From positions 382,168,001 to 382,232,000 of the forward strand of contig OZ024741.1 of NCBI GenBank assembly GCA_964016885.1: a stretch of 64,000 nucleotides of DNA, given 5' to 3'. Position 1 is the stretch's first letter. Each line of letters begins with the position of its first letter. A program made the position numbers and the translations under genes. Positions 12,032-51,406 of this stretch are shown here, one piece after another. The notes below the pieces were generated by a model. It was not told the DNA's origin, did not search any database, and saw only the letters and a list, made by a program, of their open reading frames with translations. The DNA is from Eledone cirrhosa (Eukaryota).

Positions 12032-13812
12032 GGACATAATTATTATTAATATTATTATTATTATTCTCAACATTCCTTACATCAAACTAAAATATGTTGA
12101 CAATCTTTTAATAATGTATATATATATATATATATATATATATATATATATATATATATATATATATATATATATATATATATATATATATATATATAAT
12201 TGGAAATCAGTAAAATCGAACCTCTGGCGATTTGCAAGTAAATTCGGCATACTTATATGAAGTGATGAGTTAGCAAAGCACTCGATAAGATAGGTCTCAG
12301 AGTTATAACATACGTTTAAATAGCTTGACAAATCGAACATTGTGGTAGGCTAAACTAACACACAATATATACCAATGGAACTAATCAGGTTGAGAAAAAT
12401 ACACCTGAACAAATCAAACGGGCATACGTTTAAAGTGTTTCTCTGAATCCGAAATCAAATATCAGACTTACTTGAATGGCAAGATCGTGGTATTGGTGAC
12501 TGAACAGAGGACTCAGTTTATCAACAGGTTTTCGTTCTGCTTAGAATCAGGAGTGATAAATATGGTGCCGCTCGTATGGCTGCTAATCGAATCTATAGTT
12601 ATCACGTGTTAATTCCGGCAAGGGAAATAACCCCTGGTTTTTGGCGGGTCAATTCAAATGCTAGCGAATGGAAATATTTTAATTTCCGCTAATCATCATG
12701 ATAAGCTCTCGACTAGATGTTATAAATCTAATATATATATATGTGTGTGTGTGTGTGTGTGTGTGTGTGTGTGTGTGTGTGTGTGTGTGTGTGTGTGTGT
12801 GTGTGTGTGTGTGGGTGTGTGTGTGTGTGGGTGTGTGTGCGTGTGTGTGTGTGTGTGCGTGTGTTTGTGTGTGCCGCATCGATAACACAGACATATGATA
12901 TTAAGCATAGGTAGTATACAGAATACAATGAGATAAATGCGATAACTTCTATATAGGTAGCCCTACCAGCCACTTACACATCAGGATTAAGGAACACATT
13001 AATACTGAGGCTTCCTCAATTTTAGGAAATTGCAAAAACATCACCCCAAAGATGAGAGTTAAGGTTGAAAGAAAAGAAAGAGACCTCGGCAATCTCAGAA
13101 CACACCCGAAAATCAATAATAGACTAGAACTAAGCACACAATACCTGACATAGAAGTTTATTGGATTCTATCTATAGGGGCAGACGAAGGCCCGCGTACG
13201 ACCACATTATCCATCTGGGAGAAATCGTGTGTATGCATTCATGTGTTTACACGATTCCACCCATTCGTGTTTACATATTAGAGTGTGTGCTTACACCCAC
13301 ACAAGTATGCATGTACGTGTGTGTCAGTGCGTATTAATTCAATTGCATTTAAGCATATATAACGGGAAACAACTCTATGCCCTTTGACCTGTCAATACGT
13401 TCATTTTAACACAAAATAATAAAATCCGGCCAGCATGGTATTTCAGGCCACATCGGACACTGGAATAGTTCTTTTATTTAACTCGGAAGAAGAGATATTA
13501 ATCTCGAAATATCAGGACTTTAGAATAAAATAAGGTGAAAAACTAACCCTCTTTCGTCCATTTTATATATATATATATATATATAATTAAATAAGGCAAA
13601 TATATATATATATATATATATAAAATAAGGCAAATATCTCTCTGGGTACTAAGTACGCATAGAGGTATATAGGGTGTCTATAATATAATTGTTGTTCGAT
13701 GGTACTAATTTGAGATACCAGAACTATAAAAATTGAGGAAAGCAGAACAGACAAATATTAAACAATTCCTTAAAAAAATTAAAATTGATTTAAATATCTA
13801 CCTGTTCATAAT

Positions 13813-13893
13813 ACTATTACCGGCGGTTTCGCTTTACAAAAGATTATAAATTCAGGGAATTTCTAACGGAAAAAGGAAAGTTCATCAGATAGC
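13813..13893 (-). ncRNA. Minimal hammerhead ribozyme motif
   Basis: Minus strand: gctat-CTGATGA-...gtaaagc-GAAAC cgccg GTA-atagt. Confidence 0.65.
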
Positions 13894-14289
13894 TATTTCC
13901 ACTCTATAGCATCAAGTCCCACAGCCTGCAAATATATTGCCAACTACCAGCTCGTATAAGTTATGGCCGTTAAAGTGACCCACACGTGAACTGGTCGCTA
14001 ATAAAAGCGGGAGTATTACAGACGCGCTGCTGGCTTTGGTCCAAAAAAATAGCAGTAAGCAACAACGAATTGTTTTCTCTACATAGATTGGAGAATGTAT
14101 AAAATAAGGTAAATATCTCTCTGGGTACTAAGTACGCATAACGATATATAGGGTGTCTATAATATAATTGTTGTTCGATGGTACTAATTTGAGATATCAG
14201 AACTATAAAAATAGAGAAGAACAGAACAAAGAAATATTAAACAATTCCTTTAAAAAAAAAAATGATTTAAATACCTACCTGTTCATAAT

Positions 14290-14369
14290 ACTATTACCGG
14301 CGGTTTCGCTTTACAAAAGATTAGAAATTCAGAGAATTTCTAACGGAAAAGTAAAGTTCATCAGATAGC
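14290..14369 (-). ncRNA. Minimal hammerhead ribozyme motif
   Basis: Minus strand: gctat-CTGATGA-a ctttac...gtaaag c-GAAAC cgccg GTA-atagt. Confidence 0.7.
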
Positions 14370-14447
14370 TATCTGATGAACTTTACTTTTCCGTTAGAGA
14401 TTCTCTAAATATCTAATCTTTTGTAAAGCGAAACCGCCGGTAATAGC
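14368..14447 (+). ncRNA. Minimal hammerhead ribozyme motif
   Basis: Stem I gctat/atagc, CTGATGA, stem II ctttac/gtaaag, GAAAC cgccg GTA cleavage triplet. Confidence 0.72.
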
Positions 14448-14630
14448 ATTATGAACAGGTAGGTATTTAAATCATTTTTTTTTTTAAAGGAATTGTTTAA
14501 TATTTCTTTGTTCTGCTCTTCTCAATTTTGTTAATATATATATATATATATATATATATATATATATATATATATATATATATATATATATATATATATA
14601 TATATATATATATATATATATATATATATA

Positions 14631-48660: not shown

Positions 48661-49020
48661 TATATATATATATATATATATATATATATGCATATATATA
48701 TTATTTCATTCAAATGAAAATAAATCAATAAATATGAAGGTACCTATAACAAATTATTAAGATAACTATGAAGAAAGTGTTAAGATACATATAAAATATT
48801 ATGATTCATAAATACACACACATATATATATATATATATATATATATATATATATATATATATATATATATATATATATATATATATATATATATATATG
48901 TGTATATATATATATATATATATATGTGTGTGTTTGTGTATGTATGTATATATGTATGTATATATATATATATATATATATATATATATATATATATATA
49001 TATATATATATATAGATAAA

Positions 49021-49245
49021 TATACACGGGTGTGAATGATTGTGTATAGAAGATTATATTAATAAAAGGAATTCCAACTTTGTCTGATTTATACGTTTTG
49101 TTTACAATCCTTTAAAATTTATAATGGTATTAGAATGAAATAGTATTGTAGAATATTAAATGTTAAGTGTTAATTGAACAAGTACTTTCATGCTTTCGCA
49201 ATCTTCAGGTTGTGTGGTGACAGTCAAGTTTGCAATTTTCAACTG
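49021..49245 (-). mobile_element. Solo Penelope-like 3' terminus (family of 42981-45492) with hammerhead at 49177-49211
   Basis: Matches 42981-43210; minus strand aac-CTGAAGA-ttgcgaaagcat-GAAA gtac TT-gtt. Confidence 0.85.
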
Positions 49246-49636
49246 TATGTATATATATATGTATATATATGTATATATATATATATATATATATATATAT
49301 ATATATATATATATATGTATATATATATATATATATATATATATATATATATATATATATATATATATATATATATATATATATATATATATATATGTGT
49401 GTGTGTATATATATACACCCATATACACTGATCTATATCTCATCAGATACATGAACTCTAATTTTGAAATATATAAATATAGGTTACGAAAAACAGAAAA
49501 TTATACAATATTAAGATTCTAAACAAACATTCCACACCATTAAGATATATATATATATATATATAACCTGCTCCATATATATATATATATATATATATAT
49601 ATATATATATATATATATATATATATATATATATAT

Positions 49637-50440
49637 ATATTGTTATAATTTGGGAGGGTCATGTTGCCAATAAGAAACACACGCACCAGTTGCTTTCACT
49701 TCAATTTATTATATTAAACTCATAAATTTATAAATTTCTGGTTGGTTGGTTGGTTCCACAACCAGATAGTTGTTTATATATTGTCATAGTTCTTTCGTCA
49801 CACACTCTGTGACCTCTTCAGTGACTGGGGATTCTTTTCTTTGTTTCTGTGCCTCTCCTTTGTTCTGTCCTACGCCATTTTGTTTCTGTGTGTCTGTTGT
49901 GTGCTCAGTCTACGCATGCTCCACATCCGGGTGTCTGTGTGTGTTTTTGTTCATTTATTTATTTGTTTATTTACATGTTACTGGTTGGTTGTTTGTTCTA
50001 TGTGTGTGTGTGTTTTCATTTTGTCCTTAATTGTAAGTTGTGATGTTGCTGTTCCACTCATATTTTCTATGTAATTTTGGTTGTCATTTTTTTATGTTTA
50101 TTGCCTCTGTAATTTGTCTAAACATTGCGTCTTTCCTGTGTGTAGATTCTATTTTTATTTCTATGTTCTCTAATTTACCCTTGTGTTCTATTTTAGCATG
50201 TTGGTAGAGTACAGATGATTCTTTACTATCTTGAAGGTCCGGCCAGTGTTCATTTATCCGTTCTCCTACACTACGAGCTGTCTCACCTATGTACACTATA
50301 TTTTTGTCTCTACATTGTCCTTCAGTACATCTTATGCTATACACTACATTTCTAGTTTTGCAGTTAATATGTATAACAATATCGGTTTCAACACACGATT
50401 TCAGATAAAGAATCTTGCTAAACAAATTCAGAAACGAAAT
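49637..50440 (-). mobile_element. Penelope-like 3' fragment (GIY-YIG and UTR) with inverted tail at 50371-50440
   Basis: NVVYSIRCTEGQC..YIGETARSVGERINEH..RQITEAINI; matches 40810-41540. Confidence 0.9.
49783..49825 (-). ncRNA. Minimal hammerhead ribozyme motif
   Basis: Minus strand: gtca-CTGAAGA-g gtcaca/tgtgac-GAAA gaac TA-tgac. Confidence 0.72.
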
Positions 50441-50461
50441 ATATATATATATATATATATA

Positions 50462-51406
50462 TATCACGATAAATTAATGGAGGCATAGGCCCTCGCTATT
50501 CGCTGTAAATAATGTGCTCAAAGGAGAAGAAATCCTGAGCTCTTTAATTTAAAATACAATCTGTTGAAAAGGTAACACACCAGAGTGAGATATACAGTGC
50601 GCTATCAATAAAACAGGGAAAGAAAACACCAGTGTATGGAATCTATAACCTATGAAAGGCAGACTATAGACACGATAATTAAAAATATAAATTAAAGCGT
50701 AAATAAATACCTCTATATCTATATAACACACGTACAAATCCAAAGATACTAATCCAAAGATATGTTTCACCAGTGATTTGTTGAAAGAAATGGGTTAGCC
50801 TCGGTTCATCAGCGTGTGTAAGGCTATACATTTCAGACAACACTAAGAGTATTTTAAAAGTGACTGTCCAGCTACACGTGGAAGAGAAAAGTCACAGCGT
50901 GTTTAAGGGCAGTGAACCAGTGGCCTCTGAGGAACGAACTGCTAGAAAGGGCAGCCCAAAGCCACTCAGAGAAGTGTGCTCAACCGAACAGAGATTGGAA
51001 AGACTGTTATTAGGAGCGAATTATCACGATAAATTAACGGAGGCATAGGCCCTCGCTATTCCCTGTAAATAATGTGCTCAAAGGAGATGAAATCCTGAGG
51101 TCTTTAAAATACAATATGTTGAAAAGGTAACACACCAGAGAGAGATATACAGTGTGCTATCAATAAACACGCTGTGACTTCTCTCTCCCACATGTAGCTG
51201 GACAGTCACTTTTAAAATGTTCTTAGTGTTGTCTGAAATGTATAGCCTTACACACGCTGATGAACCGAGGCTAACGCATTTCTTTCAACAAATTACTGGT
51301 GAAACATATCTTTCGATTAGTATCTTTGGATTTGTACGTGTGTTATATAGTTATAGAGGTATTTATTTACGCTTTAATTTATATTTTTAATTATCGTGTC
51401 TATAGT
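50462..51406. repeat. Direct (50462-50611 / 51022-51166) plus inverted (about 50663-50903 / 51166-51405) repeat with hammerhead-like motifs at about 50752-50815 (-) and 51255-51314 (+)
   Basis: CTGATGA acc...ggt GAAAC atat ctt; stem III mismatched. Confidence 0.75.

Follow-up and report, generated by a model that had tools for sequence, protein, structure and literature searches.

Penelope-like elements (PLEs) that carry an endonuclease (EN+), such as Pen2a_Av, are known for inverted pseudo-long terminal repeats (pseudo-LTRs), a tail that is often present at one end only and the use of microsatellites or (TA)n as targets (PMC3846280, PMC8557442). The published tail is optional, 30-40 bp in length and ascribed to self-priming or to endonuclease resolution (PMC3846280, PMC8557442), and the origin of the inverted repeats and of the one-sided tail has been named an open problem (PMC8557442). 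In vitro, the element PAc (Poseidon, Anolis carolinensis) cuts and extends both strands of an AT-rich target, uses two internal starts of reverse transcription that bound the tail and is predicted to act as a dimer (PMC11167929). We analysed a 64,000-nt stretch of the Eledone cirrhosa genome (contig OZ024741.1; the window), which has 36% GC, contains no N, is rich in (TA)n tracts and decayed retrotransposons and belongs to an assembly of 3.0 Gb. An earlier note on this DNA had listed eight inverted structures with a shared architecture, and all eight are present as head-to-head pairs of one tailed and one shorter end. They are real insertions of EN+ PLEs, with a reverse transcriptase (RT) followed by a GIY-YIG domain, pseudo-LTRs, an inverted truncated copy and an optional tail.

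The structures were mapped first by comparison of the window with itself, TA tracts being masked, and then by alignment to family references. The eight listed structures belong to six families, A to F, with 14101 in A, 17686 and 29570 (82% alike) in B, 20514, 41540 and 49637 in C, 24617 in D, 42981 and 49015 in E and 50462 in F (Table 1). Positions within a family are given as q, counted inward from the tailed tip of its reference; L denotes the long (tailed) and S the short (tail-less) 3' end site. Seven productive searches of the genome yielded 210 loci of about 3.2 kb each, the best 30 of 40 scored candidates being kept per search. Six of the seven queries were drawn from the region common to both arms; the seventh favoured tailed arms, not their partners. 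A genome search with the arm at 17790-17935 gave no match, and family B was therefore sampled through the copy at 29570. For families B, C, D and E, 59 unpaired ends were extended by about 10 kb on the 5' side; loci of A and F were left at their original length. The merged sample comprises 175 genome stretches.

In these stretches, 272 3' ends lie within 10 nt of (TA)3+: L accounts for 126 of them and S for 137, and the other 9 are off both sites. The expectation that short-arm ends cluster by family is thus borne out across the genome, 263 of the 272 ends being located at two sites per family that are about 45-110 nt apart. S is sharp, with ends at one position in 12/12 cases in D, 17/17 in E, 19/20 in C and 15/16 in B; the usual S site of F is q83-95. 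Within the window, 17686 and 29570 do stop at the same position (q87), and the common stop reported for 20741, 41540 and 49637 is q57 in all three.

The two sites are almost always used together. Among 127 head-to-head chains, 104 are L+S, none is L+L and one is S+S; of the remainder, 19 are broken or off-site at one end and 3 run into the edge of a stretch. Removal of three local duplicates leaves 101 L+S pairs, five in the window and 96 outside it. The L+S excess has a P of about 2e-29 against a 50% null, which is supported by the single arms: 27 of the 68 also have (TA)n at their 5' end, and these are divided into 14 L and 13 S. A TA tract that family E itself carries immediately past L makes the single S+S case and one L+S case of E ambiguous. 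Off-site TA-abutting ends are paired with an L end in 6 of 7 cases, and for two D arms scored as single, very short tailed partners (about 14 and 25 nt) can be made out by eye. In 82 of the 101 pairs (TA)3+ is found within 10 nt of both outer ends, as compared to 3.0% of non-tract window positions. This agrees with the predicted enrichment and, for most pairs, with short ends placed directly against (TA)n, although only a short, interrupted TA tract follows 20741. L+S pairing is near-obligate. Like canonical EN+ PLEs, these insertions have a head-to-head 5'-truncated copy, partial tandems, a one-sided tail and no readable target duplication. They differ from them in the length of the tail (about 45-110 nt instead of 30-40 bp), its one-sidedness in 101 of 102 classed pairs and a reach of the arms that could be measured.

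L does not correspond to the RNA's 3' end, where the earlier note had placed one of the primers. Five families (A, B, D, E and F) have tandem copies that extend beyond L, and an ATG is found 49 nt (B), 50 nt (D) and 33 nt (E) past it, so that L is an internal site of the unit in these five; family C yielded no tandem copy to judge by. A read-through transcript of a solo donor may also bring L beside a transcribed (UA)n, and the two situations are indistinguishable here.

We consider it probable that the head-to-head pairs arise by one complex that cuts both strands and primes reverse transcription at both DNA ends, at L on one and at S on the other. A single element-encoded complex would cut both strands of a (TA)n tract, one DNA end would prime at L and the other at S, aided by 2-6 nt of pairing between TA primer and RNA, and both complementary DNAs (cDNAs) would extend toward the RNA 5' end and be joined by microhomology or short fillers. 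Priming by one end alone would leave one 5'-truncated arm flanked by (TA)n at either end. The combination of L+S pairing, (TA)n at the outer ends, arms whose 5' reach is not linked, joints with short overlaps and an internal L makes two-ended priming the most likely reading, and the earlier proposal of two separately primed arms with a fixed short site in several families is upheld to this extent. In 59 of the 101 joints the arms overlap by 1-9 nt and in 5 by at least 10 nt; 7 are blunt and 30 contain a gap or filler.

Snap-back self-priming would account for the pairing in another way. A cDNA primed at L would fold back at its 3' end and be copied toward the target, and the endonuclease would trim or resolve the product at S, from which L+S pairing follows naturally. 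Published proposals include self-priming as the origin of head-to-head PLE structures (PMC3846280) and resolution by the endonuclease as the origin of the tail (PMC8557442). In family E, the two arms share one meeting point in 11 of 17 pairs, and short fold-back fillers are seen in several joints. Under this scheme, however, the S arm could only be a partial copy of the L arm. With a margin of more than 30 nt, the S arm reaches further 5' in 46 of the 101 pairs, in all six families and by up to several kb, while the L arm does so in 35 and the two are level in 20. Since a snap-back copy is never longer than its template, self-priming (PMC3846280) is not the general route. E supplies 11 of the 20 level pairs, and in the other five families the arms end within 30 nt of one another in just 9 of 84 pairs. 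We therefore regard snap-back as an unlikely source of the pairs in general, but it may contribute to the perfect fold-backs of the E type.

A single primer with a template switch would also leave the reach of both arms free and be compatible with microhomology at the joint and with L+S pairing. Here the RT would start at L on sense RNA, jump to an antisense transcript or antisense DNA copy that ends at S and run off there, the new end being joined to the second TA end. Antisense templates have been proposed (PMC3846280), and head-to-head donors could supply antisense RNA. The antisense end would, however, have to be fixed within a few nt in six unrelated families. Moreover, 13 clean S-only single arms exist, the TA microhomology of S is the same as that of L, and sites of the S type are starts on sense RNA in vitro (PMC11167929). 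Copying of whole palindromic donors would lead to shared joints, which are rare outside E: none of 64 joints in A, B, D and F and two of 20 in C are shared between loci, against ten loci in E. Because joints are seldom common to several loci, whole palindromes appear to be rarely copied as units, and we hold a template switch to be improbable.

Two independent insertions into one (TA)n tract can hardly explain the pairs. Tracts are indeed hot spots, with several unrelated elements per tract in the window (for example the tail-to-tail pair at 37906-38924), but L+L and S+S would be expected often and L+L is absent, TA would be expected at the joint and (TA)4+ is seen there in 1 of 101, and the two arms always belong to one family and share variants. 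Fold-back chimeras of assembly or amplification are a known artefact and the joints are taken from assembled sequence, yet such an origin is very improbable since the ends lie at fixed element coordinates and the arms have diverged (by 0.3-4.0% within a locus, being identical in only 6 of 74 compared loci, with 177 variants private to one arm against 22 present in both), and three structures recur as local duplicates.

In every one of the six families, divergence between the two arms of a locus is lower than their divergence from arms at other loci (for example 4.0 vs 7.2% in A, 0.3 vs 0.9% in D and 2.3 vs 2.5% in B). Sharing of subfamily variants exceeds shuffles in A, B, D and E in a first test and in A, C, E and F in a second one. 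This fits one donor per event, copied from one RNA molecule or from two. The L arm stops at or before S in 15 of the 101 pairs and passes S in most. Halting of L arms at S through blocking by the second primer was considered and set aside as weak on the bare counts (9 L arms in 101 pairs, compared to 4 S arms of similar length), and the way in which loci were found is the probable cause of the negative correlations between arm reaches in A and F. In family E most arms begin at q238 (window 43210, 45300 and 49247), where they pile up. This point lies 31 nt past a TATA-like run, with the hammerhead core about 45 nt further on, and is probably the RNA 5' end or transcription start. Several E joints at q238 consist of a short fold-back filler followed by the second arm starting at its own 5' end. 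Weaker pile-ups of arm starts are seen in B at about q310 and in C at about q300-313.

Several points weigh against two-ended priming at L and S. The classes L and S were defined after the data had been seen, the sample holds only the best 30 of 40 candidates per search, and all D loci beyond the window lie on one contig. One E locus counted as L+S can be read as L+L, and the shared 5' end points of E pairs fit snap-back equally well. For 41 of the 68 single arms, TA is missing at the 5' end, and these arms are unexplained or interrupted. Variant sharing is incomplete (concordance 0.61-1.00); C was not significant in the first test, no usable variant sites were available for F in the first test or for B and D in the second, and gene conversion or shared age could also produce such sharing. 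A conserved RNA fold around S and L was not found (z -1.1 to +0.6). The start site of PAc showed no strand difference, in a study that covered starts and not their pairing within one event and does not appear to model inverted insertions (PMC11167929). The joints come from assembled sequence, and an empty allele was not found, the flank search having given no allelic copy. In 6 of 98 pairs both flanks are adjacent elsewhere among the fetched loci, but five of these are, by inspection, chance repeat neighbours or the locus itself, and the one that was aligned is not a clean empty site. The flank of locus L081 is itself another abundant repeat (L270-L275; contigs C2, C3, C4, C28 and others), with many short inverted matches among its copies.

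As to what fixes the two sites, L and S each offer 2-6 nt able to pair with a TA primer. The short stop had been described as AT-rich, but its composition is ordinary: 19-72% of nearby 20-mers are equally AT-rich, and better or longer TA matches are left unused. Because S is not unusually AT-rich and longer TA runs are passed over, the sites are probably set by a protein-RNA complex. A more tentative possibility is a programmed step in which the two RT active sites of an asymmetric dimer are seated on the two fixed internal sites of a single RNA, both ends of the double-strand cut are primed at once and that RNA is copied twice by strand displacement. If so, an inverted pseudo-LTR with a one-sided tail would be what this step regularly yields in different clades, and non-autonomous units would follow the same route. 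PAc agrees with the proposed route in cutting and extending both strands and with the present elements in two internal sites bounding the tail and in its AT-rich target, but it belongs to another clade and its starts lie in an AC-rich stem loop inside the open reading frame (ORF), whereas here they are upstream of the ATG (PMC11167929). At the tailed ends of family E, variable (TATC)n or (TC)n runs of up to about 35 nt precede (TA)n (loci L229, L067 and L062; window 42950-42974, the end at 42974 showing (TATC)n first and then (TA)n), possibly due to repeated copying of a short template stretch when synthesis starts.

The families differ in their coding capacity. Family E matches RVT_1 (E-value 1e-4) and, C-terminally, GIY-YIG (3e-4), both below the Pfam cut-offs, and carries GxKF, DKG, a CX4CxxC linker and CCHH-type residues. 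Family C matches GIY-YIG (2e-4, below the Pfam cut-off) and has a linker of the CX2-5CxxC type. These motifs of E are of the Neptune type (PMC8557442), but the motifs of E and C do not by themselves separate Neptune from Nematis, for which a tree is needed. Family D is a 3118-nt unit with an intact open frame of 773 aa, for which no Pfam match was found at E<=0.1. It contains YRDD, YYVGST, RWK, DKT and CxCX5C motifs, with CxxC and CxH near the C-terminus and no CCHH, and it targets (TA)n. This motif set and target are shared with the Hydra clade, whose elements are said to carry a hammerhead (PMC8557442), whereas D is without a canonical core; as it has GAAT in place of GAAA, D is called Hydra-type by its protein motifs only. 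Copies of D are 98-100% alike (L178-L180, L223), and the family is young and abundant. Family B has broken frames that resemble D by eye, with an RWR motif. Families A and F are tandem units of 479 and 560 nt, similar to non-autonomous PLE derivatives; no long frame was found in the F stretch and none of at least 120 aa is listed for A. Partial tandems occur in A, B, D, E and F, and none was seen in C.

Minimal hammerheads are known from PLE repeats (PMC4209133). The terminal repeats of five families (A, B, C, E and F) contain hammerhead-like cores (CTGANGA..GAAA, i.e. CUGANGA and GAAA with a short stem III), which are placed upstream of S by about 100-260 nt and mark neither 3' end. The cores are more conserved than their flanks in four of these five families, although their monomer folds are weak and Rfam scans gave no match to a hammerhead family. 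In D no such core was found with a spacer of up to 60 nt; the sole candidate ends in GAAT, which is invariant in 37 copies. The description of the fold-backs as ribozyme-containing palindromes applies to 55 of the 101 L+S pairs, which have a core in both arms, and not to the remaining pairs; 20514-20741 has none and 49637-50440 has one in a single arm. Position q105 of family E carries three bases (32, 15 and 5 of 52) among copies otherwise 97% alike and differs between the arms in 11 of 16 loci. A link of variable sites to the ribozyme cut site was rejected, as the strongly variable E site is located elsewhere. More hammerhead-like cores, of other families, lie at 23305, 34868 and 42792, with TA tracts or element ends close behind.

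Some boundaries in the window differ from those first given. The inverted arms of 14101-14533 are real but form the inner part of an insertion that begins at 13623, and 14101 itself is not against (TA)n. At 49637-50440 the arms are inverted but overlap by only about 11 nt, the right arm being the tail alone, so that this is an inversion and not a palindrome. The pair at 50462-51406 is present, but its short arm ends off the family site. The sequence 18346-19505, between the B-related arms, matches neither arm in the family mapping.

Table 1. Coordinates of the PLE arms and hammerhead-like cores located in the window
Family	Feature	Position	Strand	Ends and cores	Remarks
A	Full unit to L, with partial tandem copy from 14102	13623..14368	-	L against (TA)n 13600-13622	Non-autonomous, 479-nt tandem unit
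A	Short arm	14369..14533	+	S (q107), then (TA)n 14534-14631	Reference mapping
A	Hammerhead-like core	14364	-		Motif match
A	Hammerhead-like core	14373	+		Motif match
B-related	Long arm	17687..18345	-	L at (TA)n 17671-17686; core 17875	Reference mapping
B-related	Short arm	19506..20083	+	S (q87), (TA)n from 20084; core 19984	Reference mapping
C	Long arm, q1-203	20516..20710	-	Hammerhead core absent	Reference mapping
C	Short arm	20696..20741	+	S (q57), TA tract short and broken	Reference mapping
D (Hydra-type motifs)	Long arm, q1-1143	24618..25744	-		Decayed 3' end of ORF; reference mapping
D	Short arm	25743..25895	+	S (q104-108), then (TA)n 25896-25965	Reference mapping
B	Long arm, q1-312	29571..29883	-	Core 29759	Reference mapping
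B	Short arm	29903..30128	+	S (q87); core 30031	Reference mapping
C	Single arm	40027..41539	+	S against (TA)n 41540-41582; core 41353	RT and GIY-YIG remnants
E (Neptune-type motifs)	Long arm, q1-761	42974..43715	-	Core 43167	
E	Short arm	43713..45491	+	Terminal repeat ends at S (q41-46); (TA)n 45492-45534; core 45343	RT and part of GIY-YIG ORF; internal jump 45300
E	Solo terminal repeat with tail	49015..49247	-	(TA)n either side	
C	S-ended arm, q57-790	49641..50371	-	Core 49821	GIY-YIG remnant
C	Tail-only arm, q1-68	50371..50438	+	Stops at S site; (TA)n 50439-50464	
F	Long arm, one unit plus 148 nt	50465..51167	-	Core 50812	Non-autonomous, 560-nt tandem unit
F	Short arm	51164..51405	+	Off-site end q199, then (TA)n 51406-51422; core 51257	

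Other arrangements are present near these insertions. At 36678-38924, two copies of another PLE-like family, 71% alike, lie tail to tail over (TA)n 38370-38427 with ends that differ by about 13 nt, and a GIY-YIG-like frame is found at 37139-37501. An imperfect 130-nt hairpin at 39066-39195, outside the earlier list, directly precedes a TA tract and has the same layout as the listed structures. At 39695-40030 a short fold-back of internal family C sequence is located between two TA tracts, and a sequence of about 46 nt behind the tract at 39939 is found again at 41583-41628, behind the tract at 41540, resembling a long target duplication.

In twin priming of L1, reportedly described by Ostertag and Kazazian in 2001, both ends of the target prime and the product is an inversion joined by microhomology; it is said to affect a minority of insertions, with the first primer at the poly(A) end, a variable second site and non-overlapping arms. 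The PLE pairs work like twin priming but differ from this L1 pattern, since L is internal, S is fixed and most arms overlap; the tail-only case at 49641-50438 looks alike. The window also holds, at 14632-17670, a copy resembling a long interspersed nuclear element (LINE), presumably of RTE type, with a 5' inversion, non-overlapping parts (14632-16199 similar to 47200-46079 in reverse, 16199-17661 similar to 47203-48652 forward) and (TA)n at both ends. It is a classic twin-priming pattern in the same type of target as the PLE pairs. L1 twin priming is cited in 10.1101/2024.12.14.628481.

The layout, the one-sided tail, the targeting of (TA)n, the extension of both strands and the two internal starts have already been published. 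What is new is the quantitative, near-obligate rule of L+S pairing, which points to programmed two-ended priming. Pairing of the two starts within one event, or as the source of the inverted repeat, was not found in the PLE literature searched, and older PLE papers or reviews may hold a similar model. The rule provides a sharp test, as doubly extended targets should bear one L and one S start, and the data speak against published snap-back as a general explanation. With copies about 99% alike and one 773-aa frame, family D would be a practical system for such work. In the genome, many inverted repeats are introduced into microsatellites in this way, and about one in two has a hammerhead-like core in both arms.

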